A program made the translations under genes and the position numbers. Positions 3,542 to 59,171 of a DNA stretch of 64,000 nt are shown here, piece by piece. The stretch lies in assembly GCA_964499705.1 (NCBI GenBank), contig CAZCME010000011.1, positions 1 to 64,000 of the forward strand, given 5' to 3'. Source of the DNA: an uncultured bacterium (lineage in GTDB: Bacteria; UBA8481). Under the pieces are notes generated by a model that was not told the DNA's origin, made no database searches, and saw nothing but the letters and a program-made list of their open reading frames with translations. Each line of letters starts with the position of its first letter. Positions within the stretch are counted from its first letter, which is position 1.

Positions 3542-3612
3542 AAGGATGAAGGATGAAGGATGAAGAAAACGGTCTTGCATTCCTCATACTTCATACTTCA
3601 TACTTCATCCTT
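3542..3612. repeat. Heptamer tandem-repeat inverted pair (AAGGATG)3 ... (CATACTT)n
   Basis: Left AAGGATG x3+AAG; right arm reverse complement AAGGATG AAGTATG x3. Confidence 0.85.
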
Positions 3613-3638
3613 ATTTTCTGATCAGGAGGCAACACACC

Positions 3639-4949
3639 ATGTTCGATACCAAGAAGCTCGCTGCGGCTGCGGAACGGGAGCGCGAGAATTGCGCCCGGTT
3701 TCTCCGCGACATCTGCCGGATTCCCGCCACGTCCAACCAGGAAGGCCCCGTCGTGGAACGCGTCAAACAAGAAATGAAGAAGGTCGGCTTCGACGAGATC
3801 CGGATCGACGGTTACGGCAACATTCTCGGCCGCATCGGAAACGGCAAGCGCGTCATCGCTTTCGATTCGCACCTGGACACGGTGGGCGTGGGGGACCGCG
3901 CGGAGTGGAAGCACGATCCCCACGTGGGCAAGCGCGTCACGATGGACATGAGCAAGTATTCCGATGCTCTTCCCGCGGATGCGACCTCCAAGGGCCCGCG
4001 CGACGTCATCTGGGCGCGCGGCGCCTCCGATCAGCGAGGCGGCATCGCGGCGATGGTCTATGCGGGCAAGCTCATCAAGCAGCTCGGCCTCGCCGCCGAC
4101 TGCACGATCTGGATGGTCGGCTCCATCTGCGAGGAAGACTCCGACGGCATCGCCTGGCTGTACATCCTGAAGAAGAAGGTTATCAATCCCGAGGTCGTCG
4201 TCGTTTCCGAACCCACCAATCTCAATATCTACCGCGGACATCGCGGGCGAATGGAGATCAAGGCGAAGATCACGGGCGTCTCCTGCCACGCATCCGCGCC
4301 GGAACGCGGCGTCAATCCCGTCTATCGCGCCGTTCCGTTCATCAAGGAGATCGAGAAGCTGCACACGCAGTTGAAGGGCGACAAGTTCCTCGGCAAGGGA
4401 ACGATCGCGGTGACGAAGATCCAGGAGGAGACACCGTCGCAATGCGCGGTGCCGGCTTCCGTGGAACTGCATCTCGACAGGCGGCTGGAAGTGACGGCCT
4501 CCAAGGAATCGGCCGTCGCGGAAGTGAAGGCCGCCATGAAGCGCGCCGGCATCAAGGACGGCAAGGTCTGGGTGCCCGTGTACAAGGTTCCATCGTGGAA
4601 AGGCACCGTCTTCCCGATGGAGAATTACTATCCCGGCTGGTGCCTGGAACCGGATCACTCGCTCGTGAAGATATCCGAGGAGACGCACAAGGCCGCCTTC
4701 AACAACAAGAAGGGCAAGGTCTCGCGATGGGTCTTCTCCACGAACGCCACGACCATCACCGGCATCTGCGGCGTTCCGGCGATCGGTTTCGGGCCGGGCG
4801 CGGAAGATAATGCGCACATGGCGATCGAGCACATGGCGGTCGACCACCTCATCGCCGCGATGAAATTCTACGCGGCGTTTCCGACGAAATACTCCGAGGC
4901 GGGCGGATTAAAGCCTGCCGACCGCAAGTATAAACCGAAGAGAAAGTAA
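3639..4949 (+). CDS. ygeY: YgeY-family M20 metallo-amidohydrolase
   Basis: DSHLDTVG, RGASDQRGG, EEDSDG, SEPT, RGHRGRMEI, FSTN motifs; SD AGGAGG; adjacent to ygeW. Confidence 0.88.
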   Translation: MFDTKKLAAAAERERENCARFLRDICRIPATSNQEGPVVERVKQEMKKVGFDEIRIDGYGNILGRIGNGKRVIAFDSHLDTVGVGDRAEWKHDPHVGKRVTMDMSKYSDALPADATSKGPRDVIWARGASDQRGGIAAMVYAGKLIKQLGLAADCTIWMVGSICEEDSDGIAWLYILKKKVINPEVVVVSEPTNLNIYRGHRGRMEIKAKITGVSCHASAPERGVNPVYRAVPFIKEIEKLHTQLKGDKFLGKGTIAVTKIQEETPSQCAVPASVELHLDRRLEVTASKESAVAEVKAAMKRAGIKDGKVWVPVYKVPSWKGTVFPMENYYPGWCLEPDHSLVKISEETHKAAFNNKKGKVSRWVFSTNATTITGICGVPAIGFGPGAEDNAHMAIEHMAVDHLIAAMKFYAAFPTKYSEAGGLKPADRKYKPKRK

Positions 4950-4960
4950 GGAGACCACTC

Positions 4961-6151: not shown

Positions 6152-6152
6152 A

Positions 6153-6263
6153 GGGGACATTCTCCAACATTCCAACATTGGGAATAATGGAGTTGCAAAA
6201 AGAGAGCGCCGTATTTCTTGTAAGTCGATTGTTCCCAATGTTGGAATGTTGGAGAATGTCCCC
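6153..6263. repeat. 111-bp palindromic MITE/REP-like element, copy 1 (GGGGACATTCTCCAACATT...)
   Basis: 36-bp arms with 1 mismatch (first 32 perfect); second copy at 37853-37952. Confidence 0.9.
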
Positions 6264-7370: not shown

Positions 7371-7434
7371 TCCTCGCGGGATTCCCCTCCATCAAACGGT
7401 TGGTGATTGGAGCCTCTCTGAGTATGATAGTCGC

Positions 7435-8163: not shown

Positions 8164-8165
8164 CG

Positions 8166-8501
8166 ATGCGCATCACGCTCGTGAAGAAAATCCTCACGGA
8201 CGGATCGCCCTGCCGCAAATGCGGCGAGGTCGTCGCGCGGCTCGAAGAATCCGGAATGATGCGGCGGATCGACCGGGTCGTGATCGCCGACGAACGCGAC
8301 CCGTCCAGCGAAGGCATGATGCTCGCGGCGCGGCTGGGAGTGAAGCAAGCCCCCTTCTTCGTCGTCGAGTCGCAAGGTGCCGAAGTCGTGTACGAAACTT
8401 ACATGCGCTTTTTGCGCGAGGTGCTGGAAAAGCCCGTCACGGCCGTGGACGAAGCGAAGGAAATTCTCGAACGCCATTCGTCGGACCTGGATTTCCTGTG
8501 A
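8166..8501 (+). CDS. Small thioredoxin/glutaredoxin-like protein
   Basis: SPCRKC CxxC motif and APFF cis-Pro-like motif; between cysH and cysC. Confidence 0.65.
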   Translation: MRITLVKKILTDGSPCRKCGEVVARLEESGMMRRIDRVVIADERDPSSEGMMLAARLGVKQAPFFVVESQGAEVVYETYMRFLREVLEKPVTAVDEAKEILERHSSDLDFL

Positions 8502-9558: not shown

Positions 9559-9567
9559 GAGGAAACG

Positions 9568-15815: not shown

Positions 15816-15857
15816 ACAGGATGCTCATCCAGGGGGACAGGATGCTCATCCAGGGGG
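15816..15857 (+). repeat. Perfect 21-bp tandem duplication (ACAGGATGCTCATCCAGGGGG)x2 in a 5' leader
   Basis: Read directly; TATAAT at 15802-15807 upstream. Confidence 0.9.
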
Positions 15858-27639: not shown

Positions 27640-27700
27640 AATTTGAAATATCGAATTTGTAATTTTCATCTATGCATGATTCATCCCATGACAGATGAAA
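27640..27700. repeat. Degenerate heptamers (AATTTGA AATATCG AATTTGT AATTTTC) plus TTTCATCT/AGATGAAA hairpin between convergent genes
   Basis: AT-rich gap; read directly. Confidence 0.5.
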
Positions 27701-31540: not shown

Positions 31541-31589
31541 GATTTTAGATTTTAGATTTTAGATTTTAGATTTCAGATCTTGGATTCCA
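31541..31589. repeat. Heptamer tandem array (GATTTTA)4 plus 3 degenerate units, single arm
   Basis: Read directly; overlaps the stop of the DUF4126 gene. Confidence 0.9.
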
Positions 31590-36938: not shown

Positions 36939-37853
36939 GTGAAAGTACGGTTCAAGGAATACGAAATCCCCATTCCGATTGTCACAATCGCTCTGGTGGC
37001 CCTGAATCTTTTCGTCCAGGTTTACGCATCCTACCTCGGCGTTCTCGGAGTTCCGCCTTCCATCAACAAGGACCTGAAATCGATGGAGGAGGAATACGAC
37101 GCCGAGGCGCAGGCGCTGTACAAGCAGATCAGCGCCGAATACACGGCCGCCCTGCGCTCGGGCGGATCGACCGAGGGATTCCAGAAACGCTACGAGGACG
37201 GCATCCACGATCTCGAGAGGAAATATTCCCGCAAGGCGCAGCCTCTCCTCGATGGCGTCCCGTTCATTGGATTTCTACGGACCTTCGGCGTCTACCCCGA
37301 CCGCTACAATCGCGGCATGCAGGAAATCCACGGCAGGCTCCGCTCCGGCGTCGACAAGATTCTCTGGTATGGGGTCACGTTCATCTCGTATCAATATCTG
37401 CACGGCGACTGGAGCCATTTCTTCTGGAACATGGTCTTCCTGCTCCTCTTCGGCCTGACGATCGAGTTCGAAATCGGCAGCCTCCTGTTTCTCGCCTTCT
37501 ACCATCTCGGCGGCATCGCCTCGGCGATCACGCAGGTCGGCATCAATCCCGGCGCCACGACGCTCCTCATCGGAGCCAGTGGATCCATCGCAGCGGTGAT
37601 GGGAGGATTCCTCATCGTGGCTCCCACCGCCCAGATCTCGCTCGGCTGGATCCTCGGTCCGCTGGGCTTTCTCCTCGGCCGCACCTCCGCCGCGATCTTC
37701 CTTCTCATCTGGATCGGCGGCAACTACCTGAACGGCGTCTCATCCCTGGGAGAGGGAGGTACCGGAGGCGTCGCCTGGTTCGCCCACGTCGGAGGATTCG
37801 CCATCGGTGTCGGATGGTTTCTCGCCATGGAGGCGAGGGAGGTTTTCAGATAG
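36939..37853 (+). CDS. Rhomboid family intramembrane serine protease with ~100-aa soluble insert
   Basis: LHGDWSHFFWNM, IGASGSIAAVMG, VAWFAHVGGF. Confidence 0.9.
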   Translation: MKVRFKEYEIPIPIVTIALVALNLFVQVYASYLGVLGVPPSINKDLKSMEEEYDAEAQALYKQISAEYTAALRSGGSTEGFQKRYEDGIHDLERKYSRKAQPLLDGVPFIGFLRTFGVYPDRYNRGMQEIHGRLRSGVDKILWYGVTFISYQYLHGDWSHFFWNMVFLLLFGLTIEFEIGSLLFLAFYHLGGIASAITQVGINPGATTLLIGASGSIAAVMGGFLIVAPTAQISLGWILGPLGFLLGRTSAAIFLLIWIGGNYLNGVSSLGEGGTGGVAWFAHVGGFAIGVGWFLAMEAREVFR

Positions 37854-37952
37854 GGGACATTCTCCAACATTGCAACATTGGCGTTATTGAAGTTACAGGC
37901 CCATCCCTGTAAGTCTATTATTCTGAATGTTGCAATGTTGGAGAATGTCCCC
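37853..37952. repeat. 100-bp palindromic MITE/REP-like element, copy 2
   Basis: 27-bp perfect arms GGGGACATTCTCCAACATTGCAACATT. Confidence 0.9.
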
Positions 37953-39003
37953 TTAACCACCTCTTCACGACCTCCTCGCCTTCCCTGCCCTTCGGAGAAT
38001 AATTCGTCGCTTCCGTTCCCGGCAGGTCCCACTCGTACACAAACGCTCCTGAAAATCCGGGGGTTTTCTTCCAGGCTTCGAAGAACGCCGCGAGGGCCCG
38101 GGCCTGTTCCTCGTCATCACGGGTGGTCTGCATCGTGTAATTCCACGGATACACGGCGCCGCCATCGACGGCGGGACAGCCGATCTCCGTGAAGAGGAGC
38201 GGTTTGCTTTCGGGAAGCCAGTCGAGCAGGTCCTGGCGGACCTTCATCCACGATAATTCCAGATCGGTACGCGTTGCTTCCGAATCGTGTGTCAGTTCGA
38301 AATATCCGGAAATCCCCACCTGATCCAGCAGATCCCAGAACTCGACGACATCGTAATGATCCCAGTTCGCGCTGTAGATCAGTTTTCCCCGGTATTCGCT
38401 CCGGACGCCGGCAATCACTTTCTGCCATCGGGCCCGCTCGCGCTCGGACCAAAGCAGCTCCGATCCCACGGACAAGGACTCCGCGCCTTTCTCATCCGCG
38501 ACACGGGCGAGGTCCTTCAGGAGCGATTCGTAATTCCTCCACCATGCATCCGGATCTTCAGGCTCCATCACGCCCCGCCATTCCCTGTCGCCCGCGGATT
38601 CCAGGAGGACGATCGGAAGCAGATGCACGCGCAGGCCCATTCCGCGAGCCGTTTCGATCGTCCTCGCGATTCGTCGCAAGGAGGGTGTTCGTCCCTTGAC
38701 GCTCCGGGGTTCCGACGACCGGACATCGGCCTGGTACCACGCGATCACCAGCTCGACGCTGTTCGCGCCGAGCTCCCGGATCTCCGCCAGTGCCGGTTCG
38801 TAATCGTAGTTATCGCTGCCCGCGTGAAGTCCGAGTGCCATGCCCCGCACTTCGGCGGACGCATCGATTCGCGGGCGGATTTGCGGCGGACGGCGAAGGA
38901 GAAGGGCCGAGGCGGAAGATTCCGCCGAATCCGTCGTGAAGTACGCGGCGGCGGCAAGGATGATCGAAACGCCGGCGAGGATCGCAACAAGATTTTTTCT
39001 CAT
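37918..39003 (-). CDS. Glycoside hydrolase family 113-like (beta-mannanase type) protein
   Basis: WRG, VGSEL, YSANWD, GISGYF, FTEIG, FVYEW. Confidence 0.82.
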   Translation of the reverse strand: MRKNLVAILAGVSIILAAAAYFTTDSAESSASALLLRRPPQIRPRIDASAEVRGMALGLHAGSDNYDYEPALAEIRELGANSVELVIAWYQADVRSSEPRSVKGRTPSLRRIARTIETARGMGLRVHLLPIVLLESAGDREWRGVMEPEDPDAWWRNYESLLKDLARVADEKGAESLSVGSELLWSERERARWQKVIAGVRSEYRGKLIYSANWDHYDVVEFWDLLDQVGISGYFELTHDSEATRTDLELSWMKVRQDLLDWLPESKPLLFTEIGCPAVDGGAVYPWNYTMQTTRDDEEQARALAAFFEAWKKTPGFSGAFVYEWDLPGTEATNYSPKGREGEEVVKRWLRGHSPTLQHSE

Positions 39004-39713
39004 CGCTTATCCTTCCACCAGAGCACCGCGATCATCCCGAGAATCTTGACGCCCGCGCCGATCGTGCCCTTCACGGTCCCGCTGATCTTCGAGACGCCGA
39101 TCCTCCTGCGATAGCTGACCGGAATTTCCACGACCTTCATCCCCACTTGAATCGCCTTCACCTGCATCTCCACGGTCCAGCCGTACGTCCTGTCCCGCAT
39201 GCCGAGCTTGTCCAGCGCATCGCGGCGGATCGCACGGAACGGGCCGAGGTCGGTCGTGTGGTGCCGCCAGATGCCGCGGATGAGCGCCGAGGCGAGCGCA
39301 TTTCCGAATCTCTGCTGCGGCGTCAATGCTCCGGGTTCCGCGATTCCCAGCGCGCGCGAGCCGATGGCGAGATCCGCTCCGTCCGCGACGGCGCTCACCA
39401 ATCCGGTCGCTTCCTCCGCCGCGTCCGATCGATCCGCATCGGCGAAGAGCACGATATCGACGGTCGAGAGCGCCGCGATTCCGGCCAGGCAGGCCGACCC
39501 GTATCCTCTCCCGGTCTCCGTCACGACGCGCGCTCCCGCTTCCGCGGCCATCGCCGCCGTCCGATCCGTCGACGCGTTGTCGCAGACGACGATCTCGTCG
39601 ATGAGGCGTGTTCCGTCCCGATTCACGCCCAGAAAATCCCGGACGACAAGGCCGACGGATTTTTCCTCGTTCCAGGCGGGGATGACCATCCCGATCCTAG
39701 ATCCCTGAAACAA
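39000..39713 (-). CDS. Glycosyltransferase family 2 (polyprenol-phosphate glycosyltransferase-like)
   Basis: IPAWNEE, DNASTD, GYGSAC, DADRSD, TDLGPFRAI, YGWTVEMQ. Confidence 0.92.
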   Translation of the reverse strand: MFQGSRIGMVIPAWNEEKSVGLVVRDFLGVNRDGTRLIDEIVVCDNASTDRTAAMAAEAGARVVTETGRGYGSACLAGIAALSTVDIVLFADADRSDAAEEATGLVSAVADGADLAIGSRALGIAEPGALTPQQRFGNALASALIRGIWRHHTTDLGPFRAIRRDALDKLGMRDRTYGWTVEMQVKAIQVGMKVVEIPVSYRRRIGVSKISGTVKGTIGAGVKILGMIAVLWWKDKR

Positions 39714-45023: not shown

Positions 45024-45128
45024 GGGTCGATATTTTATCCCACGTTCATCGAACCACAAACAATTCCCTTGAGAGATCTGTAACCAGTAATTGAGGGCGA
45101 TGGATTTCGCATGCTGAAATCCAATTCG

Positions 45129-45217
45129 TCATCAGTCATCGTTCATTCGCCATTCGCCATCGCGTTGACTTTATCTGGATTCCAAATGACGAATGGCGAA
45201 TGAACGATGACTGATGA
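45129..45217. repeat. Heptamer-unit inverted repeat, 32-bp arms, 25-nt loop
   Basis: TCATCAGTCATCGTTCATTCGCCATTCGCCAT vs reverse complement of 45186-45217, 1 mismatch. Confidence 0.9.
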
Positions 45218-45331
45218 ACATTTCTCTCAATATCCCTTTGCGCGCTGAATAATGGACACGCACCGCATGATTTCGTCCGCCCGAATCTCTCATCTCTTGC
45301 TCCCATCCTCCTCGAATGCTACCGTGGAATC

Positions 45332-48097: not shown

Positions 48098-48106
48098 ATC
48101 CGAAGC

Positions 48107-49180
48107 CTACTTCGACGGCGTGGTGTAATACGCGAGATGGCTGTTCGAGCGCTCGTTGCCGTGGAGCGAACCCAGGCGCTTGTCTTCACCCAGCCGGCTC
48201 ATCGTGAAGTCGCCGACCGTGCCTTCCAGCTTCAGGCCCTTCAGAAGTATCCAGTCGTTCTCCTGCATCGACGTCCACGTGCCCTGAGTCGTCCTGCCCT
48301 CGTCCGTGTGCGTGAACGAACCATTGGCGCGGATCGTGAGCCTCCCGAAGTCGGTCTTCAGGCGCGGATCGCGATGCCGGTACAGGGACCATGTGCGCTG
48401 AAAAAATGAAGGCTTTGTCCAGGGATCGAGATCGAGGAACTCGGTCGATGGTGCTCTCCAGCCGCGAAATCCGGCGCCTCCTCCGTTCAGGGACTGGATC
48501 GTGATCTCGCCGTCCTTTCCCTTCGTGACCGCGAGATCTCCGAAGCCTGTCTTGGCATCTCCTCCCCAGAGCACGATGCCGCCATGGACATAGCCTCCGC
48601 GCGTCTCCGTATTCACCGTCCACCGGCCGCGGTACTTGATGTTGTTCGCGGTCACGCGGACGAACGTGCCGTCCGCCTTGATGTGCGTATATCCACCGAC
48701 GGCTCCGCCGCCCCGCTTGCTCCATTCGCGGATATATTCATTATTGATCCGTTCGGACTTGACGACGTTGAAGACGACGTGCCCCTGCGTCAGCCACGTG
48801 CCGATGAAGTATTCGGCTCCGGTCGTGTCTCCGGTCGCCGCAGGCCCCGTCTGGGGATTTTCACCGGCGGGTGGGATCGTCTTCGGCATTTCCGCGGGTG
48901 CGACGCCCCCATCCCGGGGACGAACTTCCTCGGGTTTGTAGTAGCTGGAGAAGCTGGTGCTCGGATCGTATCTCCCGTCCGCAAGAGGGAGCATGACAAG
49001 AACTCCGTACTCATTATGACGAATGACACGGCCGTCCTTCCATTCCCCGTATCGAAGAACGGAAACTTCCTGCCCTTCGGTGAATGTCGCGGCCCGCGTC
49101 GTCGCGATCCCCGAAACCGTAAAAAGAAGGATATTCGCAAGGCAGATCATTTTGAAGCGAGACATCTTCAGGACCTCCAT
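48107..49180 (-). CDS. Secreted hypothetical protein (SH3/Tudor-like domain plus two lipocalin-like repeats)
   Basis: Signal peptide; GQEVSV..GEWKDGRV; repeated F..TW ... A.G.F ... G.W. Confidence 0.55.
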   Translation of the reverse strand: MEVLKMSRFKMICLANILLFTVSGIATTRAATFTEGQEVSVLRYGEWKDGRVIRHNEYGVLVMLPLADGRYDPSTSFSSYYKPEEVRPRDGGVAPAEMPKTIPPAGENPQTGPAATGDTTGAEYFIGTWLTQGHVVFNVVKSERINNEYIREWSKRGGGAVGGYTHIKADGTFVRVTANNIKYRGRWTVNTETRGGYVHGGIVLWGGDAKTGFGDLAVTKGKDGEITIQSLNGGGAGFRGWRAPSTEFLDLDPWTKPSFFQRTWSLYRHRDPRLKTDFGRLTIRANGSFTHTDEGRTTQGTWTSMQENDWILLKGLKLEGTVGDFTMSRLGEDKRLGSLHGNERSNSHLAYYTTPSK

Positions 49181-49236
49181 AAGGATGCTGTACTACCGGC
49201 TGCAGCATAACCAATCCCGCGCGGGCGGGCGAATGA

Positions 49237-51795
49237 TTATCTCTTCCGCAGGAGAAGCGCGGTGGCCGGAAGGAGAAATGGCCGGACCAGCAGGGTATCC
49301 ACGAGGACTCCCGCGGTGACGCCCAGGCCCACCTGCTGCAGGAAGGCGACGCGCGACAAGGCCAGCGCCGCGAATGTGCCGGCCAGGACAAGTCCGCACG
49401 ATGAAACGACGGGACCCGTGACCTCCAGCGCTTTCGCCAGTCCCGCTTCGAAATCCGAGTGCGCCGCTTCCACGCGCGCGCGTCCGAGGAGAAAGATTCC
49501 GTAGTCGGCGCCGATGGCGACGAGGAGCACGAAGAGGAAGAACGGCGTCTTCCAGTCCACGCCCGGCCAGATTCCCCATCGCGCGCAGACAGACAGCACA
49601 CCTAGAGCGGCAAAATAGGACGCGAGAAGATAGACCGTCACGGCGGCCGGCAAGGCGAATCCTCCCAGGAGTAGAACGAGAAGGATGAAGACACCCGCCA
49701 CGACAAGGATTCCCACGAGGCGAAGATCCTGGGTTGTGATCGCTTCGAGATCCGCCGTGATCGGCGTCGGTCCGCCGACGAAAGCTGTCGCGCCCGCCAG
49801 ATCATGGATCTCGAACCAGAGAGGAAACCGGGCATGCAGATCGCTCAAGGTCTTCACCGCCTCCGGTGAGTTGGGTGACGCCTCGAGTTCCACTTCAAAG
49901 AGCGCGGCCTCCCCGCCTTCGGATACGAAATGATCCATGACGCGCGCGAGTTCCGGAATCGCGTCATAGTCGTCCACGGAAAGGGCGAGGCGATCGAGCG
50001 CTTTCGCCGCCTCGGGGGAATTCAACATGATCTTCAGGCGGTCCGCTCCACGGTCGAGTCCTTCCGCCAAAGCCTGCGCCCCTTCCTCCCCGCGGGCCAG
50101 GCCCAATTCCAATTTCCGCATGTCCGACGCGAATCCGTCCAGATCACGCCGCGCATCGTCAAAGCGGCGACCGGCCAGCAGAGCGGCCAGCGAGCCGCGC
50201 CTGTCCTTCTCAAGCGCGGCCTTTTTTTCCTCGATCTCCCGTCCGCCGCGCACAACCTCATGGCGCGCTTCTCCCAATCCCTTTCCCAGCGCGTGCGCGC
50301 CATGAACGGCCTTTCGGAGTCCCGCCTCGATCTCGACCATCTGGCTCCGGATCGTTCCCCTTTCGAAAAGCCCCGCCGCTCCCGTCGGCCGCGTCGCGCT
50401 GTGAACGACCGCCACGCCGGGCGTCACCGCCAATCGTTCCGTGAATTGATGAAGCGCGCTCAATCCCTCCGGTCCACGCCAGCCATCCGGCAATGTTCCG
50501 CTCTTCGCCGGAATCCGGATCATGACGGCCAGCGGTCCCGCGGATGAAAGCGAAAAGTGGCGCTGAAGCGCGGCGTAGCCGGCTTCGGACGGGCTCGCGA
50601 CAGGAATATCAATCTCGTTCTCGAACGTCGGACGGGAGGATGTTCCCAGATAAAGAACAGGAGACAGCGAAAGCGCGACAACGATGAGCATGAGAAGCGG
50701 ATGAGCGAGAACGAGGCGGGCGATGCCGGGCCAGAGCCATCCACGCCGGGCATTTTCGGGGCGGGACGGCCAGAAGAGGTGCGAGCCCAGGAGGCGCATC
50801 AACGCCGGCGCAAGCGTGAGTGTCGCAACCAGTGCCGTTGCGACGCCGATCGCGAGCGCGGCGCCGGAGAAGCGGAAGAGCCCGAATTGCGCGAACTCCA
50901 TGAGCCCGCACGCGACGCCGACGGCGAACGCGCTCCCCACGATGACATGGAGCGAACCTCGCCACGCAGCGCCGATCGGATCTTTCGATCCCGCCGCGGC
51001 TTCCTCTCTCGCGCGCGCGAAGAGAAGAAGGCAGTAGTCCGTGCCGACACCGTACACGATCGCGACGAGAAAGGAGCGCGCCTGGTACGCCACGGAGAGA
51101 CCCAGGGATGCCGCCAGAGTTACAAGGCCGAACGTCGCGCCGAGCGCGGCGCCGAGCGTGAGAATCGAAACGCCGGCAGCCACCGGCGAACGATAGACGA
51201 CGAGAAGAATCACGATGACGAGGAAAATCGTCGCCCACGCGGATCGCGCTCCGCCTTCATCGATCGCGCGATCGTAATCGCGGCCCAGGGTGGCGTCGCC
51301 GGACAGGAATATCCGGAATCCTTTCTCGCCCGCCTCCTTTGCCAGTCGCTCCACCTCATCGACAACGCGCGCTCCTTCTTCGGACGCGAAGCCCACGGAC
51401 AGCTGGACCAGGACGAGTGCGGCACGGCTGTCGGACGCGACGAGGCGATGTTCGAGGATGGGATTGTCCGTCGGAGCGAGCACAGCGGAAACCAGCGAGG
51501 TGGATTGGAGATGGCGCAGGAGGTCAGCAAGCCCGGCAATCCGATCGCGCGCGGTCGACATATCCGAGTCGGACTCGATCACGAGGACGATCTGCGAAAG
51601 AGGAGACGCTCCCGGAAAGAGTTTCTCGATCTCTTCACGGGCGATCCGATGCGGAGAATCCGGCGGGAAGAAGGAACCGGGATCCGTCACCGCGACTTCA
51701 TGCAGATGCGGAATGCATGCGAATCCCGCGATCGCGCCGACGATCCAGGCTGCGACGACGATGATCGACGCGGCGCGCGCTCTCATCAGCGACAT
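49237..51795 (-). CDS. MMPL family transporter
   Basis: YGVGTDYCL and VAIGADYGIFL motifs, GVLVDTLLVR, coiled-coil insert. Confidence 0.9.
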   Translation of the reverse strand: MSLMRARAASIIVVAAWIVGAIAGFACIPHLHEVAVTDPGSFFPPDSPHRIAREEIEKLFPGASPLSQIVLVIESDSDMSTARDRIAGLADLLRHLQSTSLVSAVLAPTDNPILEHRLVASDSRAALVLVQLSVGFASEEGARVVDEVERLAKEAGEKGFRIFLSGDATLGRDYDRAIDEGGARSAWATIFLVIVILLVVYRSPVAAGVSILTLGAALGATFGLVTLAASLGLSVAYQARSFLVAIVYGVGTDYCLLLFARAREEAAAGSKDPIGAAWRGSLHVIVGSAFAVGVACGLMEFAQFGLFRFSGAALAIGVATALVATLTLAPALMRLLGSHLFWPSRPENARRGWLWPGIARLVLAHPLLMLIVVALSLSPVLYLGTSSRPTFENEIDIPVASPSEAGYAALQRHFSLSSAGPLAVMIRIPAKSGTLPDGWRGPEGLSALHQFTERLAVTPGVAVVHSATRPTGAAGLFERGTIRSQMVEIEAGLRKAVHGAHALGKGLGEARHEVVRGGREIEEKKAALEKDRRGSLAALLAGRRFDDARRDLDGFASDMRKLELGLARGEEGAQALAEGLDRGADRLKIMLNSPEAAKALDRLALSVDDYDAIPELARVMDHFVSEGGEAALFEVELEASPNSPEAVKTLSDLHARFPLWFEIHDLAGATAFVGGPTPITADLEAITTQDLRLVGILVVAGVFILLVLLLGGFALPAAVTVYLLASYFAALGVLSVCARWGIWPGVDWKTPFFLFVLLVAIGADYGIFLLGRARVEAAHSDFEAGLAKALEVTGPVVSSCGLVLAGTFAALALSRVAFLQQVGLGVTAGVLVDTLLVRPFLLPATALLLRKR

Positions 51796-51896
51796 GTCTC
51801 ACATCCGGCGGAGACCGAATGAATCTCAACTCTTCCTCTTGAGGTCGCTCCTTCTTCGAAGCACAATGAATGCGGCATGATGATTACGTCCCGACC

Positions 51897-53069
51897 ATGA
51901 ACAGCGGAATCCTGCGCATCGGCAAATGGCTCTTTCTCGCCCTGATTCTCGCGATCACGTCTGGCGCCGTCGTCCTGGAGTGGATGGACAACACGATCGA
52001 GGCGCCGGGCTTCATCGCGGGCAGCCTGCTGCTCGCGGTCACGGTCCTCTACTACACGCAGAAGGGAAGAAAGGCGGCCGTCGTCATCTTCTCGCTGGCG
52101 GGATTCCTGATCGCGGCGCACATGCTGGTCGCCTTTTCCGGCCAGGGCGACTCCGCGCTCTATTCCGTCTACTTCATTCCCATCCTGATCGCCGCCGGTC
52201 GATTCGGCCTCGCGGGTTCGTCCGTGACGGGAATCATCGTGACCATCCTGTACGCCACGTTTTTCCTGCACGCCACGGAGCAGGAGATCCAGGCGGAGCT
52301 TCTCGAGGAAACCATCACGCTGATGTTCATCGCGCTCCTCTCCGGTTATCTCGTCGACCGACTGAAGGATGAAGAACAGCGGAGGTTCGCCGCGGAACGA
52401 CAGGAGCGGGATCGCGAGCGGCTGGCCGAGATCGGGCTCCTCGCCGCCCAGGTCGCCCACGAATTCCGCAATCCGCTCCAGGTGATCGAAGGATCCGCGG
52501 AGACGCTGGCCGCGCGGGGCTGGGTGGCCGAGGCGGGGAGAATTCTCCTGGCCGACCTGAAGGAGCAGGCCCGACGCATGTCGATTCTCGCCGCGGATTT
52601 TCTCGCGTATGGAAAACCCGTGCTCCGCGCGAGAACTTTCGTAAATCTTCACGGTCTGGTGGACCAGGCCGCGATCGGCGTGGGCGCCGTCGTCGTGAAG
52701 AACATGGTCGCGGAATCCCTTGGTACCGACGCCGATCCCGATGCCCTGGAGCGCGTCTTCCGCAACCTGTTCACTAACGCGCGGAAATCTTCCGCGACGC
52801 GCGTCACGGTCTCATGCTCCGCGTCAGGCGGTGAACTCGTCGTCCGTGTCAGCGACGACGGAACCGGCATTCCGGAGGATCTTGCTCCGCAGCTCTTCCA
52901 GCCCTTCCGCACCGGCCGTCCCGGTGGTGTCGGGCTGGGGCTCGCCATCGCGCGCCGTATCGTCGAAGCGCATGACGGGCGGATCGGGATCGCGGCGACG
53001 TCTCCTTCAGGAACCACGATGCAGATCGTTTTTCCCTCGCGCCTGTCTTCACACGGGTCGGCATCATGA
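51897..53069 (+). CDS. Membrane sensor histidine kinase
   Basis: 5 TM; AHEFRNPL, NLFTNA, DDGTGI, GVGLGL. Confidence 0.92.
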   Translation: MNSGILRIGKWLFLALILAITSGAVVLEWMDNTIEAPGFIAGSLLLAVTVLYYTQKGRKAAVVIFSLAGFLIAAHMLVAFSGQGDSALYSVYFIPILIAAGRFGLAGSSVTGIIVTILYATFFLHATEQEIQAELLEETITLMFIALLSGYLVDRLKDEEQRRFAAERQERDRERLAEIGLLAAQVAHEFRNPLQVIEGSAETLAARGWVAEAGRILLADLKEQARRMSILAADFLAYGKPVLRARTFVNLHGLVDQAAIGVGAVVVKNMVAESLGTDADPDALERVFRNLFTNARKSSATRVTVSCSASGGELVVRVSDDGTGIPEDLAPQLFQPFRTGRPGGVGLGLAIARRIVEAHDGRIGIAATSPSGTTMQIVFPSRLSSHGSAS

Positions 53070-54439
53070 GCCACGAGTCCTCGTATGCGACATCCATCCT
53101 CCTCGTGGATGACGAAGCGCCCATCCGGCGTCTCCTCGAAACCCAGGTGAACGATCTCGCCCGTGTCCTCACCGCCGGCTCCGCCGAAGCGGCATGGGAG
53201 ATTCTGCGGCGCACAGACATCGACGTCATCGTGACCGATTTCCGGATGCCGGGCATCGACGGGCTCCAGTTCCTCCAGCGCGTCCGGGACTGGGACAAGG
53301 AGGTGCCCGTCATCGTCGTGACGGCGTTCGGAACGATCGAAACCGCCGTGGAGGCGATGCGCGCGGGCGCCTTCGACTTTCTCACCAAGCCCGTGGAGAT
53401 GAAAATATTCCGCCAGACCGTGGAGCGCGCTCTCGCCTTCAGGCGGCTTCGCGAGGAAAACCGTTATCTCCGCGAACGGCTCGGCGAGGAGGACATGCCG
53501 GAGTTCATCGGGACATCGGCGGAGAGCCTCGACGTAAAGAGAAAAATGCGGGAGGCGGCGCCGAGCAGCGCGACTGTGCTCCTGACCGGAGAGAGCGGAA
53601 CGGGAAAGACGATCGTCGCTCGCACGATTCACGCGCTCTCCAACCGCCCGGGACTCTTCGTCCGGATCAACTGCGCCGCCCTGCCGGAAGCGCTTCTCGA
53701 GAGCGAGCTCTTCGGCCATGTGCGCGGCGCCTTCACCGGCGCCCACCAGAACCGCAAGGGAAAGTTCCTGCTCGCGGACAAGGGCACGCTCTTTCTCGAC
53801 GAGATCGGAACGCTCTCCCTCCCCCTGCAGGCCAAGCTCCTTCACGTCCTGGAGGAAGGCGAATTCTCGCCCGTCGGGGCCGACGTGAGCCTGCGGTCGT
53901 CGGCGCGCATCATCGCCGCGACGAACGAGAATCTCGACGACGCCGTGAAGACGCGGCGGTTCCGGTCCGATCTCTTCTGGAGATTGAACGTTCTCATGAT
54001 CCCGATTCCGCCCCTGCGCGTGCGACGCGAGGACATTCCGCTGCTCGCCCATCACCTTCTCGCCCGCTTGAACGCGGGACGAACCGTGTCTCTTTCCGCG
54101 GAAGCCATGGCCGCTCTGACGGCGCAAGCCTGGCCCGGCAACGTGCGCGAATTGCAGAACGTCCTGCAGCGCGCCCTCGCGCGGTACCACGGCGAGGAGA
54201 TGCTCCCCGCGGAGGCCTTCGACGAGACGATGTGGGAAGCGCGCGATACGCTTTCCCTGAAGGAATCGCTCGCGCGCGTCGAGCGGGCGCTCATCGCCGA
54301 GGCGCTCCGGCGGACGAAAGGGCACAAGACCGCCGCGGCCGAACTGCTCGGGCTCACGCCGCGCATGGTCTCCTACTACCTCGACAAGTATCCCGATCTC
54401 ATGGACGCGGTCGACGCGGAACGGAAAACCAGGGATTAA
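53066..54439 (+). CDS. NtrC-family sigma54-dependent response regulator
   Basis: LLVDDE..TDFRMP..TKP receiver; GESGTGK, ESELFGH, GAFTGA, WPGNVREL; Fis HTH. Confidence 0.95.
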   Translation: MSHESSYATSILLVDDEAPIRRLLETQVNDLARVLTAGSAEAAWEILRRTDIDVIVTDFRMPGIDGLQFLQRVRDWDKEVPVIVVTAFGTIETAVEAMRAGAFDFLTKPVEMKIFRQTVERALAFRRLREENRYLRERLGEEDMPEFIGTSAESLDVKRKMREAAPSSATVLLTGESGTGKTIVARTIHALSNRPGLFVRINCAALPEALLESELFGHVRGAFTGAHQNRKGKFLLADKGTLFLDEIGTLSLPLQAKLLHVLEEGEFSPVGADVSLRSSARIIAATNENLDDAVKTRRFRSDLFWRLNVLMIPIPPLRVRREDIPLLAHHLLARLNAGRTVSLSAEAMAALTAQAWPGNVRELQNVLQRALARYHGEEMLPAEAFDETMWEARDTLSLKESLARVERALIAEALRRTKGHKTAAAELLGLTPRMVSYYLDKYPDLMDAVDAERKTRD

Positions 54440-55602
54440 GTCGCTTCCCACAGTTGTCCCGTGACCAGTCCCTCATCCACTTTTTCGACGCGTGAGGCGA
54501 GCGTGCGGGGGAAGCTGACGGCGCGCGCCGCCCAGTGCGAGCAGAGATCGCACCGGAAACATTTTCCGGGCAGACATCCCCCTTTCCTGAAGACGAGATC
54601 GAGGTAGCCGTCCAGGGATCGATTATCGATCCGGATCTGATCCTCGATGTCGAACGCCGGGCGGGCGGCGCGCGCCAGGCCCAGCAGCCTGCGCCAGCCT
54701 CCGCGCATCACGGCGGCGAAGCCTGTCGCGGCGTCGATATGCACCGGCCCGCGCCGCATCAGGTCCATCAGGTTTCCGTCATATCGTCGTTCCGCATATG
54801 CGCGCGTTCGCGCGACAAGATCTTTCGTGGAACATCCCCGCCCCGCGATCTTGAAGTGGCGATACCCGAAGGCCTCGTAGCGCGGAAGATCCTCGGGGCG
54901 GATCCAGTCCTGCATGAGAAGCCGCGACGGATCCTTCAGGAATCCCGTGTGGCACTGGAAATAGCAGGCGTCCGGAGCCGGCGTCTTGCGCCGCGACGCG
55001 GCGCCGAGATCGGCGGCGTGGCAGGGCGCCCAGGCGCAACCGAGCTCGCAACGATTATTCACGAGGAGTTCCAGTTCGCCGCGGCCCGCCATCGCCCGCA
55101 TGATCGCGTTCAGCCGGTCGGGATCGCGGTTCACGAGCATCGAGTCCAGGACGATCCGGTGCGCGCCCTCGTCGAACCATGCGCGCGCCTTCCGTTCGTC
55201 ATCGACCCGCGAAAACACGCTGACACGCACCTTCAATTTCGTGTGGCGGACGATGACGCGGAGAAAGAGCGGCGACACGACGGTCACCCATTCCACGCCG
55301 CACTCGGAGATGCGATCGAGGAGCTTCCTCAGGCGGCGGTAACCTTCCGGCGTCGCGATGTCGCCCGTTCCTCCGTCCGCGGCGTTCAGGAGGTAATCGA
55401 ACGCGATCCCCTTCGACCGCGCATGCTCCACGTGCTTCCGGAACCGGTGCCATCCGATCTTTGGCACGAGAAATCGCGGGCGGCCTCCCCCGAAACCGTC
55501 ACCCTCGATCTTCCCGTAGATCTGGGACACGGGTAGATCGGCGACGCCGTCGATCAGTTCATCCTCGAAACTTGTCGCGAGCGAAAACGCGGATCCGGTC
55601 AT
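54436..55602 (-). CDS. U32 'peptidase' family Fe-S protein
   Basis: GGGR, YLLNA, ELLVNNRCELGC..CH, CYFQC, WIRPEDL, FKIAGR, C-terminal CxxxCxxCxxC. Confidence 0.85.
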   Translation of the reverse strand: MTGSAFSLATSFEDELIDGVADLPVSQIYGKIEGDGFGGGRPRFLVPKIGWHRFRKHVEHARSKGIAFDYLLNAADGGTGDIATPEGYRRLRKLLDRISECGVEWVTVVSPLFLRVIVRHTKLKVRVSVFSRVDDERKARAWFDEGAHRIVLDSMLVNRDPDRLNAIMRAMAGRGELELLVNNRCELGCAWAPCHAADLGAASRRKTPAPDACYFQCHTGFLKDPSRLLMQDWIRPEDLPRYEAFGYRHFKIAGRGCSTKDLVARTRAYAERRYDGNLMDLMRRGPVHIDAATGFAAVMRGGWRRLLGLARAARPAFDIEDQIRIDNRSLDGYLDLVFRKGGCLPGKCFRCDLCSHWAARAVSFPRTLASRVEKVDEGLVTGQLWEAT

Positions 55603-55603
55603 G

Positions 55604-56674
55604 TCAGATTCCTTTCCAGCGGCAGACCGCGAAGTCCATGGAGAATCCCGGGCCCACGGCCAGAATCCCCGCCGTCTCGCCGAATGGGGCCGAGGCCCGA
55701 TTCGACCAGTATTTTTCCAGGACGAAATAGATGGTGGCGGAGGAAAGATTCCCGACGCGGCGAAGGACGCCGCGACTCTCTTCGAGCCCGCCATGCGGTA
55801 TGCCCAGTGCTTCCTCCATTGCGTTCAGGATCTTCGCTCCGCCGGGATGCACAAGCCACCGGATCGCGCCCAGGGATGGAACGGAACTCAGGAGCGACTT
55901 CACCGTGGGCACGAGTTCCTCGCGGATGAAGGCGGGAATTCGCGGAGACAGGAAGATGTGGAAACCTGTCTCACGGAGATCGAATCCCATGAAGTCGAGG
56001 GTGTTCCGGAAGAAGTGCGATCCCGTGGATTCGATGCGGAGCCCGGAGACCGGCTTGCCGGTCACGAGAGCGCCTGCGGCTCCATCGCCGAAGATCGCCG
56101 TGGAGATGACATGCGCGCCGTCGAAATCCGTCGGCTGAAACGTAAGCGTCGTCAGTTCAACGGCCAACAGGAGCACGGTCGAATCGGGAAAAGCCCGGAT
56201 GTGATCGTGGGCCATCCGGAGAGATGCGACTCCGGCCGCGCACCCCAGTTCCGTCACGGGCAACCGCTTGATGTCCGAACGGAATCCGAAACGATTGATG
56301 AGATACGCGTCCACGGCGGGGATCATGAATCCCGTGCAGGAAGTCGTTATGATGAGATCGACGTCCTCGATGCGCAGCGGACTTCTCTCGAAAAGCCTGA
56401 CCACGACTTCCTCGGATAGCCGGCGCGCCGTTTCCATGTAGGTCTGATTCTTCTTCCGGAGCGCGGGATCTTCCATCAGCTCCTCGATGGGAATCGAACT
56501 GTACCGCGTCTCGACTCCCGCGTTGTCGTAGGCGCGCCGCGCCGTGGCCAGCGGGATCGGAGCACCGCTGTCGGGAGCCTTGAGATACCATCGTTCCAGG
56601 AGCCGCTTCGCGCGTTCCTGCGTGAAAAGATTGGACGGCAGCGCCGTGGCCACGCCCGCGATCGTGGCCGTCAT
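55604..56674 (-). CDS. Type III polyketide synthase
   Basis: ELGCAAG (Cys), VHPGG (His), GNLSS (Asn), FGDGAAG, GPGF. Confidence 0.93.
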   Translation of the reverse strand: MTATIAGVATALPSNLFTQERAKRLLERWYLKAPDSGAPIPLATARRAYDNAGVETRYSSIPIEELMEDPALRKKNQTYMETARRLSEEVVVRLFERSPLRIEDVDLIITTSCTGFMIPAVDAYLINRFGFRSDIKRLPVTELGCAAGVASLRMAHDHIRAFPDSTVLLLAVELTTLTFQPTDFDGAHVISTAIFGDGAAGALVTGKPVSGLRIESTGSHFFRNTLDFMGFDLRETGFHIFLSPRIPAFIREELVPTVKSLLSSVPSLGAIRWLVHPGGAKILNAMEEALGIPHGGLEESRGVLRRVGNLSSATIYFVLEKYWSNRASAPFGETAGILAVGPGFSMDFAVCRWKGI

Positions 56675-57267
56675 GACGCCACCCTGTTCTTTCCCCGCAC
56701 CGTGAATGTGATCTTCACGTCATCGGAGACCTTGAAGAAAAGAAATCCCGGAGGCTCCATGCCGAAATCCGTGATCTTCACCCGCGCGGTTCCCGTCACG
56801 GCAAGATCGGACCCCGCGAAACCCGCCATGATCTCCACCGGAACCCGGCGTGTCGTCCCGTGCACTGTCAGATCTCCCGACGCCGTCGCCGTGAAGGTGT
56901 CGGAGCCCGTCCATCGCGGCGCCTTGAGTTCGCGCAGCTTGAAGACAATCTCCGACTTCTCATCGCCGCCGAAGATCTTGTACATCTCGTTGTCGCGCGC
57001 GCTGATGCCGGTCTTCAATGTGCGGATCGGAATCCGCGCCTCGCCGAACGCGGTCTCCGCGACCTTCTGCCGGTCGCAGCCGAACTCACCCTTCACAACC
57101 GCGGTCTTCCCCTCGAAATCGTGGCCCGTGGAATGCGCGTGAAACACGAGCGAATTCCTCGCGCCGGTCATGTCATATTTCTGCACGGCCCCCGACGCGG
57201 CCACGGCCAGGAGAAGCGTCAATCCCGCAAGCCAACCCATGTTTCTTCTGATATTCCAGATCATCAT
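56671..57267 (-). CDS. YceI-family periplasmic lipid/polyprenyl-binding protein
   Basis: Signal peptide; HDFEG, LKTGISARD, GDLTVHGTTR, TDFGMEPP. Confidence 0.88.
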   Translation of the reverse strand: MMIWNIRRNMGWLAGLTLLLAVAASGAVQKYDMTGARNSLVFHAHSTGHDFEGKTAVVKGEFGCDRQKVAETAFGEARIPIRTLKTGISARDNEMYKIFGGDEKSEIVFKLRELKAPRWTGSDTFTATASGDLTVHGTTRRVPVEIMAGFAGSDLAVTGTARVKITDFGMEPPGFLFFKVSDDVKITFTVRGKNRVAS

Positions 57268-57434
57268 TCCTGTATGCTCCCTTCGCTTATTCGTGGAATT
57301 CTACTGCACAAATGGGGCCCGCCAATAAACGATCGCAAATCGCCTGCTTTCAAGGAAGCCCTTACAGAAAACGTAACGGACGGGGATTGCGCGAACCGAG
57401 GAGTGAAAATTTCAAAAATTCTCGATCAAACAAT

Positions 57435-57571
57435 ATTAACAGGATGAGCAGGATAGGCAGGATCGATTCAGGGTAGAAAAGAAGGTAATGTAGTCCTGTA
57501 ATCGGGGAAGAGTTTTCTTTTTGCTCTTCTTTCTTTTTTCACATCCTGCCCATCCTGCCCATCCTGTTAAT
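57435..57571. repeat. Nonamer-unit (CAGGATRRG) inverted repeat, 29-bp arms, 79-nt spacer
   Basis: ATTAACAGGATGAGCAGGATAGGCAGGAT vs reverse complement of 57543-57571, 2 mismatches. Confidence 0.88.
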
Positions 57572-57690
57572 TCACAGCCAAAGGATGGGGAACTTCTGTG
57601 AAAATTTCCTGATCCTTGATCGTCCACGGCATCCGTTCTATGATCGACGCATGAAATTCGGACGTCTTAACAACCAGGGGGTGATCCGCC

Positions 57691-59094
57691 ATGTCTGACG
57701 TACTTTCCCGACTTGCTTCCCGACCCGTTGCAGAGCAACAGCCGCAGGACGCGCCGATGCGCTCGGACGGCGGACGCGAAATCAACCTGGCCTGCGACCG
57801 CCCGCGCGAGCCCCAGACGGTCGAGGAGATGGGCATTCCCGAAGCCTTCATCGAGGACATGATCCTGAAGCTCCTCTCGCAGCAGGGCGCGATGACGGAG
57901 CACCAGATCAGCTGGTCCCTGAAGGTTCCCAAGCACATCGTCTCCCAGTTCACCAAGGATCTCTCCAAGAGAAAACTCGTCGGGCCTCCGCCTTCCAATC
58001 CGAACGCCTTCATATGCGGATCGGAGGGCAAGGATCGGGCGGAAGACGCCTCCAAGACGACGCGGTATCTCGGGCCGGTTCCGGTCTCCGTCGATGAATA
58101 CGTCCGCCTGATGCGCCAGCAGGTCGGCCGTCCGCTCCAGTTCTCCCAGAAGGATATCGAGGCCGCCTATTCGAAGATCGTGATGTACGACCAGGACTTC
58201 CGCGAGCGCATCGGTCCCGCGGTCCGGTCTCAGCGAAGCATTCTCCTGTACGGAGCCCCCGGAAACGGAAAGACGATCATGGGCAAGTGCCTCACGTCGC
58301 TCATGAAATCGGACCTCATGATTCCCTACTCCATCTTCGCGCACGGCCAGGTCATCAAGGTCTTCGATTCCGCCTTCCACAAGCCCATCCTGTCCGACGA
58401 ATACAAGGAATACGACATCGAGAAGACGGACGACGCGCGATACGACATGCGATGGAACATCATCAATGTGCCCTACGTCGAAGTCGCCACGGAATTCACG
58501 CTGGCCGGATTCGAGCTCTCTTACAACGAATACGCGAAGTACTACGAGATGGCGACGCACGTGAAGGCCAACGGAGGAGTCTTCTTCATCGACGACTTCG
58601 GACGCCAGAAGGGTAAGGCGGAGGAATACCTGAACCGCCTCATCACGCCCCTGCAGTCGCGCGAGGACATCCTCCAGCTCTCCGCGACCGGAGGCCAGAT
58701 CCGAGTCCCGTTCTACTGCATCCCGCTCTTCTCCACCAACTTCACGCTCGACAAGATCGGCGACGAAGCCTTCCTCCGCCGCTTCAAGTACAAGATCCTC
58801 GCCCGCAGCCCCGGGGAAAAGGACCTCGAGGACATCTTCAAGTTCGAATGCATGCGCAGTGGCATCGATTTCAACAAGGAGATGTACGAATATTTCCTCG
58901 ACCGCGTGAAGAAGCGCGACCTGAAGCTGCGGAGCTGCCTGGCCAACGACATTCTCTCCAAGATCATCGATCATTGTTCCTTCCACACCATGAAGGCGGA
59001 GATGTCGAAGGAGCTTATCGATCTCGCGTTCGAGCTGAACTTCTCGGAGCAGACGGAGACGTGGGCGTTCGGGACGAAGGAAGAGAAGAAGTAA
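57691..59094 (+). CDS. AAA+ ATPase with N-terminal winged helix
   Basis: YGAPGNGKT Walker A; KANGGVFFIDDFGRQ Walker B; FSTN; DEAFLRR. Confidence 0.85.
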   Translation: MSDVLSRLASRPVAEQQPQDAPMRSDGGREINLACDRPREPQTVEEMGIPEAFIEDMILKLLSQQGAMTEHQISWSLKVPKHIVSQFTKDLSKRKLVGPPPSNPNAFICGSEGKDRAEDASKTTRYLGPVPVSVDEYVRLMRQQVGRPLQFSQKDIEAAYSKIVMYDQDFRERIGPAVRSQRSILLYGAPGNGKTIMGKCLTSLMKSDLMIPYSIFAHGQVIKVFDSAFHKPILSDEYKEYDIEKTDDARYDMRWNIINVPYVEVATEFTLAGFELSYNEYAKYYEMATHVKANGGVFFIDDFGRQKGKAEEYLNRLITPLQSREDILQLSATGGQIRVPFYCIPLFSTNFTLDKIGDEAFLRRFKYKILARSPGEKDLEDIFKFECMRSGIDFNKEMYEYFLDRVKKRDLKLRSCLANDILSKIIDHCSFHTMKAEMSKELIDLAFELNFSEQTETWAFGTKEEKK

Positions 59095-59171
59095 TGTTTA
59101 ATTTCTAATTTGTAATTTGTAATGTCTATTTTGAATGACATTACAAATTACAAATTGGAAATTAAACATTA
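59092..59171. repeat. Heptamer-unit inverted repeat, 35-bp arms, 10-nt loop
   Basis: TAATGTT TAATTTC TAATTTG TAATTTG TAATGTC / reverse complement, single T-G pair. Confidence 0.92.

Follow-up and report, generated by a model that had tools for sequence, protein, structure and literature searches.

In Coxiella burnetii, the intervening sequence of the 23S rRNA contains three tandem heptamers 5' of an open reading frame (ORF) for a four-helix-bundle protein; its terminal repeats pair into a stem of 28 bp, with RNase III cleavage at the first repeat. ORF-bearing intervening sequences of this kind, in Coxiella burnetii and Leptospira, are regarded as a selfish insert (Warrier et al. 2016, PMC4990558). 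Tandem heptamers have furthermore been described as intergenic GGGAATC arrays in Xanthomonas and Nostoc, with 70-75 inverted pairs in Xanthomonas (Rehm et al. 2015, PMC4692102), and as TAACTGA arrays in Beggiatoaceae (MacGregor 2015, PMC4679880). A third known system comprises repetitive extragenic palindromic (REP) sequences, their paired form (REPIN) and the REP-associated tyrosine transposases (RAYT), of which a variant with long terminal repeats, the terminal inverted repeat (TIR)-associated tyrosine transposases, is on record (Di Nocera et al. 2013, PMC3733652). Here, we analyzed the inverted repeats of a 64,000-nt stretch of DNA (positions 1 to 64,000 of contig CAZCME010000011.1, termed C11 and referred to as the window) from a groundwater bacterium, whose draft genome comprises 4.67 Mb at 61% G+C and is 96% complete. 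Eight sites between 3542 and 59171 are considered, and on balance the evidence favors reading them as a mixture of small hairpin repeats that are scattered between genes and come from at least six unrelated families. On this reading 6153 and 37852 are REPIN-like doublets, while the other six are gene-less stem-loop cassettes (3542, 45129, 57435 and 59092, the one-armed 31541, the relic 27640). By stem-loop cassette we mean an inverted pair of arms made of tandem 6-9-nt units; the filled form holds one small gene, most often for a four-helix-bundle protein (PF05635, 23S-rRNA-IVS family) or for a GxxExxY nuclease of predicted PD-(D/E)XK type (PF13366).

An earlier note on this DNA had listed the eight sites as one dispersed class of inverted repeats with arms of 7-, 8- or 9-nt units. 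Six of them, 3542, 6153, 37852, 45129, 57435 and 59092, are indeed strong inverted repeats at these positions and rank at the top of all inverted repeats that the inverted-repeat finder returned for the window; 31541 has one arm only and 27640 is a degenerate relic:

3542..3612: family F hairpin; 24-nt arms, 92% complementary; -29 kcal/mol, z -6.2.
6153..6263: family A REPIN-like doublet with GGGGACATTCTCC... arms, 32 bp perfect; -79.9 kcal/mol, z -15.1.
27640..27700: weak site, a one-armed relic with family-E-like 7-nt units and a small local stem.
31541..31586: single array of family H type; 6.6 tandem copies of the 7-nt unit GATTTTA.
37852..37953: family A REPIN-like doublet; 48-nt arms, 81% complementary; -60.4 kcal/mol, z -10.6.
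45129..45217: family G hairpin of 7-nt TCATTCG-like units; 28-32 bp stem; -51.2 kcal/mol, z -9.4.
57435..57571: family C element with 9-nt units CAGGATGGG; 29-bp arms, 93%; -62.5 kcal/mol, z -7.1.
59092..59171: family E hairpin of 7-nt units TAATTTG; 35-bp stem, 97%; -43.4 kcal/mol, z -12.3.

The inverted repeat at 6153 has 49-nt arms of 90% complementarity and that at 45129 has 32-nt arms of 97%, and the arms at 3542 consist of 3-4 units of 7 nt, GGATGAA facing its complement with some G-T positions, and enclose no gene. Folded as RNA and compared with 200 shuffles each, the six hairpin sites yielded -29 to -79.9 kcal/mol with z between -6.2 and -15.1, and in no case did a shuffled sequence (0/200) fold equally well. 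For comparison, 27640 is not significant as a hairpin (z -0.78; 43/200 shuffles fold equally well), and the 31541 array, which has no inverted partner arm, folds no better than its shuffles (z +0.2 and -0.75). Tandem Repeats Finder returned arm units of 7, 8 or 9 nt, so the unit lengths of the earlier note stand; the single class does not, as REPIN-like doublets and tandem-unit families are both present. Its description of the sequences as mostly unrelated applies in general with the exception of 6153 and 37852, both of family A, and its statement that the arms are AT-richer than their surroundings was confirmed (arm G+C 0.17-0.47 versus 0.61 for the genome). Throughout the window, a tRNA was the sole Rfam match at gathering thresholds.

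All of the sites for which neighbors are described here lie between protein genes. The 3542 hairpin begins 5 nt 3' of the stop of a CHASE2-cyclase gene and 26 nt 5' of an M20 peptidase gene, 6153 begins 1 nt beyond the TAG stop of a carbamoyltransferase-like gene, and 37852 overlaps the TAG stop of a rhomboid gene in a convergent gap with a GH113 gene opposite. The first three bases of 59092 are the TAA stop of the upstream gene, and a UvrD-like gene starts 6 nt beyond the hairpin. The 31541 array sits between DUF1015 and DUF4126 genes, whereas 45129, between a radical-SAM/methyltransferase gene and a TPR gene, and 57435 occupy divergent gaps.

A genome-wide scan (arms of at least 18 nt, at least 85% paired, loop up to 200 nt) provided 166 hairpins, of which 118 had arms of at least 24 nt, compared to 11 and 0, respectively, in a genome simulated with equal size and equal second-order composition. 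Evidently, the number of hairpins is far above chance expectation, and the many further copies which the earlier note had anticipated exist. By sequence, 137 of the 166 could be assigned to families:

Family A: 44 copies, including 6153 and 37852 of the window.
Family D: 27 copies.
Family B: 21 copies.
Family C: 21 copies, including 57435.
Family H: 7 copies; 31541 is H-like.
Family E: 6 copies, including 59092.
Family G: 4 copies, including 45129.
Family F: 4 copies, including 3542.
Family I: 3 copies.

Families D and E-I lump sub-families, which confounds a comparison of arm identity within and between their copies. Although our own gene calls span 92% of the genome, 118 of the 137 family-assigned hairpins lie outside them. 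The pairwise bracketing of gene modules which had been read from the window is a by-product of this placement, since any two neighboring copies of an intergenic element bracket genes, and this part of the earlier note was therefore dropped. The closeness to stop codons, by contrast, was borne out: families A and B have a stop codon within 3 nt on 51 of 70 stop-facing sides, and the median distance of the tandem-unit families is 12.5 nt on stop-facing sides versus 79 nt on start-facing sides. Arrays of short period, taken by themselves, are in excess as well, and 152/207 arrays of period 7 and 87/245 of period 9 are intergenic.

The family assignment of the window copies gains its meaning from filled copies elsewhere in the genome, where three PF05635 (four-helix-bundle) genes and two PF13366 (GxxExxY, TIGR04256 confirmed) genes were found; among the control genomes, Bacteroides thetaiotaomicron gave a PF05635 match. 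All five are enclosed by inverted tandem-unit arms, for which a long-range scan gave lengths of 27-41 nt at 90-97%:

C21: four-helix-bundle gene between arms of 6-nt G+C-rich units.
C9:122971-123249: four-helix-bundle gene between family E arms, the family of 59092.
C5:106813-107103: four-helix-bundle gene between family G arms, the family of 45129.
C4: GxxExxY gene between 9-nt D-type (D3) arms.
C8:30753-31115: GxxExxY gene between family C-type arms, as at 57435.

As each of the families E, G and C also occurs around a gene at another locus of this genome, the hairpins at 59092, 45129 and 57435 are gene-less relatives of filled cassettes. The earlier note had mentioned that similar repeats flank four-helix-bundle and GxxExxY genes in other genomes and had suggested looking for copies around an ORF; both the link (5/5 in this genome, and also in relatives and two further phyla) and the filled copies were recovered. 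The phylum is represented by five genomes in our collection, each of which contains both gene families (5/5). In the four relatives, clear arms occur at 7 of the 9 loci that could be evaluated on both sides, the other two being weak or complex; two further loci, outside these nine, are cut by contig ends. Two arrangements around filled cassettes are recorded as such. At C9:122819-123345 a complete empty family E hairpin lies directly beside the four-helix-bundle gene in the order arm, loop, arm, gene, arm, so that one left arm is able to pair with either of two right arms. In a relative (G002:C236), three tandem copies of the left arm, built of 9-10-nt units and each followed by a short spacer, stand 5' of one GxxExxY cassette.

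The cassettes resemble the ORF-bearing 23S rRNA intervening sequences, in which an S23p/PF05635 ORF is situated between terminal inverted repeats (~28-bp stem) with tandem heptamers in the arm. They differ in that the window copies are gene-less and lie between protein genes instead of in rRNA, and in that the cassettes possess a second cargo, GxxExxY, with its own 8-9-nt period, plus other cargo. None of the window copies holds an ORF; all three PF05635 genes elsewhere in the genome (3/3) are enclosed in this manner, with families E and G shared with the window.

In order to compare arms outside the phylum, 30 loci per gene family were taken from two further phyla and each was scored by the best inverted repeat, without gaps, that connects its two 200-nt flanks, with the same loci shifted by 1 kb serving as controls. 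Loci reaching a score of at least 13 were as follows:

GxxExxY: 19/27 in the first phylum (that of genome G008), 21/28 in the second (that of genome G016).
Four-helix-bundle: 12/28 in the first phylum, 25/28 in the second.

None of the 120 shifted controls reached this score (0/120; highest 11.5). The arm period, determined by autocorrelation and only at loci which reached the score of at least 13, separates the two kinds of cargo:

GxxExxY (n=40): period 7 at 0 loci, 8 at 20, 9 at 14, 10 at 3, other at 3.
Four-helix-bundle (n=37): period 7 at 31 loci, 8 at 4, 9 at 0, 10 at 1, 12 at 1.

For period 7 against all others a Fisher test between the cargo types gives p ~7e-16, a value which is overstated as some of the loci are orthologous. 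By eye, the same rule is seen in the phylum of the host, with 9 nt at seven GxxExxY genes and 6-7 nt at six four-helix-bundle genes. Across three phyla, the arm period follows the cargo: four-helix-bundle genes have arms with a period of 7 (or 6) nt, GxxExxY genes arms with one of 8-9 nt. This rule assigns 57435 to the GxxExxY type, and 3542, 31541, 45129 and 59092 to the four-helix-bundle type. The arms of GxxExxY cassettes furthermore share a loose consensus across phyla, ACCAC-RRAG-N-CAC-RRAG, which is matched by the 8-nt family D1 of the host genome (13 gene-less hairpins). No paper with the general cassette design, a link between GxxExxY and inverted tandem arms or the period rule was found in a literature search that left supplements aside; in the literature covered, published descriptions of the design are restricted to rRNA intervening sequences and, with no gene attached, to heptamer arrays.

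The GxxExxY protein itself was examined by alignment and structure prediction. Among 32 aligned proteins from three phyla (a second set comprised 45 sequences) G22, G24, E27, Y30, D66, K78, Q90, Y94, N107 and R117 are invariant, and E76 is almost invariant; to judge from the alignment, these residues include a complete, conserved D...ExK site of the kind expected of a nuclease. By sequence, only a chance-level match was obtained against the PDB. The AlphaFold model (predicted local distance difference test, pLDDT, 96) is confident and shows a PD-(D/E)XK fold, with its best structural matches at template-modeling (TM) scores of 0.4-0.6 to 4ic1 ('Crystal structure of SSO0001'), Cas4 (4r5q) and lambda exonuclease and, in the same range, to the Hjc Holliday-junction resolvase and archaeal splicing endonucleases. 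Because of these fold matches and the conserved active site GxxExxY is predicted to be a minimal PD-(D/E)XK nuclease, although the fold search does not separate DNA from RNA nucleases. The four-helix-bundle protein encoded on C21 matches PDB 2gsc, an uncharacterised protein of Xanthomonas campestris, and this hints that the heptamer arrays of Xanthomonas belong to the same system as the cassettes.

Orthologous sites were compared for four cassettes of genome G008 and four congeneric genomes (G025-G028, genus g9). All four sites (4/4) differ among the five genomes:

Site 1: GxxExxY cassette in G008; 48-51 nt spacers with an unrelated G+C-rich hairpin in G025 and G027; one solo arm in G028; homologous arms around an unrelated 378-aa ORF in G026.
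Site 2: four-helix-bundle cassette in G008 and three others; left arm retained, with a 325-aa ORF, in G027.
Site 3: GxxExxY cassette in G008 and G027; G+C-rich palindrome in G025 and G026; empty hairpin of 7-nt units in G028.
Site 4: four-helix-bundle gene with 7-nt arms in G008; GxxExxY gene with 9-10-nt arms in G027; G027-type arms with a truncated GxxExxY gene in G025; G+C-rich palindrome in G026; another ORF without arms in G028.

At each of the four sites the variable segment is the entire gap from the stop codon of one neighbor to the start codon of the other. One G+C-rich palindrome (CCTC...CTCCTAA / TTAGGAG...GAGG type) recurs in cassette-free alleles of G025, G026 and G027 at 3/4 sites and is probably another dispersed hairpin family of this genus. 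For the window itself 59092, 6153 and 31541 could be compared with relatives, whereas synteny around 3542, 37852, 45129 and 57435 is broken in the four relatives. At the site of 59092, G003 carries a hairpin of different 7-nt units, which also starts right at the stop, and G001, G002 and G004 carry none; the site of 6153 is occupied by ordinary intrinsic terminators in G002 and G003, and the 31541 array is absent at the orthologous position of the same two genomes. The view of the elements as non-autonomous, dispersed and replaceable is supported; in the contigs of metagenomes (see below) no difference in presence appeared. For the window, the practical message is that its hairpins are mobile or replaceable repeats and not regulators specific to the neighboring operons.

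The two family A sites require a separate account, and it is a known one. A gene for a Y1 tyrosine transposase (C13:80043-81065) adjoins family A copies (C13:79846-80094 and near 82829-82871); it matches PF01797 with 37.8 bits and, as best NCBIfam model, NF047646 'REP-associated tyrosine transposase' with 69.3 bits, which falls short of the cut-off (80). Family B half-sites flank a further Y1 gene, located on C17, on both sides. In analogy to REP/REPIN systems with RAYT or TIR-associated tyrosine transposases, families A and B consist of dozens of intergenic palindromic doublets, mostly 3' of genes, and one single Y1 transposase gene is situated amid the copies of its repeat. They correspond to the known REP/RAYT system, either in its usual form or in the variant whose terminal repeats are long; the REPIN-like doublets at 6153 and 37852 are formed by the end repeat of a RAYT-like tyrosine transposase. 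REP elements of this kind can carry an unpaired GTAG-type tag at one end; in family A, TAG or ATAG stands in front of many copies and often serves as a stop codon, which explains the elements said to begin at TAG (6149, 37851). This arrangement fits 6153 and 37852 only, as the tandem-unit families have no tyrosine transposase partner. The listed sites are therefore not one element class, and the termini of a DDE insertion sequence are built from a related 9-nt family. At C29:27024-27319 a family C element is nested in the loop of a family A REPIN-like element.

Several observations weigh against the cassette reading of the remaining sites. The counts from the other phyla include related, non-independent loci. 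Many arrays are one-armed (for family F 32/40 arms genome-wide), and families F and H have no copy with a small gene in this genome. Family H arms flank a 216-aa ORF without family match and, elsewhere, an IS1380-like gene broken into two ORFs. Within family C, the interior is conserved from copy to copy but unlike the GxxExxY cassette, so that this family spreads as a unit of its own; its copies have a conserved interior with asymmetric outer flanks and form a unit of ~145 nt, similar to a miniature inverted-repeat transposable element (MITE). The D2 arms double as the termini of a DDE insertion sequence from which MITEs derive, and a transposase could therefore move such arms, albeit no D2 copy is present in the window. 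Cargo swaps within conserved arms, as at the congeneric sites, weaken the idea that arms always travel with the gene. The contigs of four DNA metagenome runs gave no absence allele over 39400-59399, at low depth: they bridge 45129 and 59092 unchanged, and the sole joint inside an element (57456 to 57539), one side of which measures 29 nt, is best read as stemming from other family C copies. Finally, the orientation of arrays relative to genes is near random, and of the 42 tandem-unit hairpins in co-directional gaps, 20 fold more stably as the sense strand and 18 as the antisense strand, the remaining 4 being ties; with strand stability even and array orientation near random, nothing marks a strand-specific RNA role. 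The G-U asymmetry of the arms, in which the earlier note had seen a sign of RNA function, does exist, but the G-U excess and strand bias within families C and D are mismatches shared by descent and are not tied to the sense strand. In favor of the cassette reading, the cargo has the direction of its co-directional neighbors at 28/31 GxxExxY and 25/26 four-helix-bundle loci (53/57), the flank genes being crudely taken as the longest ORFs. Such a bias is in keeping with cassettes that lack a promoter and are expressed via the transcript of the host; plain selection against antisense inserts would also produce it.

The hairpins could alternatively be transcript-end or processing hairpins of the host, that is mRNA stabilizers or terminator substitutes, at which the small genes merely lodge preferentially. 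The closeness of the elements to stops is as expected from this explanation, as are the classical intrinsic terminators at the relatives' 6153 site, and the irrelevance of orientation is what a symmetric hairpin should show; the G+C-rich palindromes of the cassette-free g9 alleles likewise imply that different hairpins replace one another between stop and start. However, many copies lie in divergent gaps beside start codons only (45129, 57435), and the stems are long and A+T-rich without the G+C stem of a terminator; those of the window (24-35 bp) differ from intrinsic terminators also in that no clear T-run follows them by eye. Furthermore, the copy-paste families A, B and C with their conserved interiors behave as mobile repeats, and a preferred landing place does not predict that the arm period tracks the enclosed protein family. 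We consider this explanation unlikely.

Still less probable, in our estimate, is that the elements are MITEs moved in trans by DDE transposases with tandem-unit terminal repeats, the small genes being passengers. An intact IS4-like element of this genome (PF01609 DDE_Tnp_1, 381 aa; C8:146626-147771, within C8:146400-147950) does end in ~55-nt inverted repeats that contain 9-nt units, a decayed second copy with two short ORFs is found on C24 (17900-19200), the D2 hairpins share the IS4-like end sequences, several of them with MITE-like loops of 100-150 nt, and the uniform copies of family C resemble a 145-nt MITE. In contrast to MITEs derived from insertion sequences, families C, E, F and G have no parent transposase: in the 96%-complete draft none lies between their arms. 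The cassettes are found in most genomes of three phyla with ever-different arms, the period rule ties these arms to the small non-transposase protein, and no target-site duplications were seen, though without systematic examination.

That the elements are simple repeats of the heptamer class, unconnected with mobile genes and acting through phase variation or a non-B DNA structure (G-quadruplex, cruciform), appears very improbable. In its favor, the period-7 arrays are strongly intergenic (152/207) and the published arrays of Xanthomonas, Nostoc and Beggiatoaceae are similarly placed, sharing 7-nt tandem units near stops or starts, numbers that vary between relatives and, in Xanthomonas, frequent inverted pairs. 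Against it, the window units (GGATGAA, TAATTTG, TCATTCG, GATTTTA) are A+T-rich without the runs of at least 3 G that set the G-quadruplex class of Rehm et al. apart, and the arms are common to gene cassettes. That paper itself gives 70-75 inverted pairs (PMC4692102), and the Xanthomonas campestris protein 2gsc hints that the arrays there are the same system. For their arrays these papers propose G-quadruplexes or regulation, and the text covered mentions neither a mobile-gene nor a four-helix-bundle link.

Returning to the cassette reading, a mechanism can be outlined in which the encoded protein would recognize its own periodic arms. The cassette would be promoter-less and transcribed by read-through, and in the read-through transcript the arms could pair to a long stem that is cut by RNase III, in analogy to the Coxiella 23S rRNA intervening sequence. 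This idea is founded on stems that are long enough for RNase III (24-35 bp), on the RNase III gene which the host genome carries and on the published case. Insertion between genes would then be nearly harmless and would leave hairpins at transcript ends, and gene-less hairpins would be copies that lost, or never carried, their cargo. Candidate steps for the spreading as DNA are recombination via the flanking genes, insertion at existing hairpins and the action of transposases in trans. As a bolder and clearly tentative proposal, which we put forward with more doubt than conviction, the four-helix-bundle 'IVS' and GxxExxY proteins may drive a widespread cassette system, in which each protein reads its own periodic arms (7 or 8-9 nt), the cassette is cut from the read-through message like a protein-coding intervening sequence, the arms act as slots for the exchange of cargo and much of the intergenic 7-9-nt repeat excess is the footprint of the system. 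If true, the excess of 7-9-nt intergenic tandem repeats seen in many phyla, the 23S rRNA intervening sequences and two very large families of tiny genes without function would share a common origin. The period rule and the conserved nuclease site make binding of the arms by the protein and cleavage of the arms concretely testable, and the rule offers annotators a means of sorting intergenic hairpins which would otherwise pass for terminators or noise.

Some further observations were made along the way. Two paralogous genes of ~2.2 kb without Pfam match (C14:29806-32155 and C9:115777-118112) have family E hairpins at both ends, and their gene calls extend into the hairpin arms. The orthologues of two window genes, at 35484-36911 (amidohydrolase) and 57757-59094 (no Pfam match), are adjacent, 10-20 nt apart, in G001 and G002; here 21 kb separates the two genes, and each junction has a hairpin repeat in its vicinity (37852, 57435). 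At 15816-15857, at the start of a small called gene, a direct repeat of 21 nt is present in two perfect copies. At 53400-54740 the metagenome contigs reach 10-30x the depth of the adjacent bins with many joints and loose ends, a pile-up which is likely caused by a conserved domain common to many other organisms of the sample.

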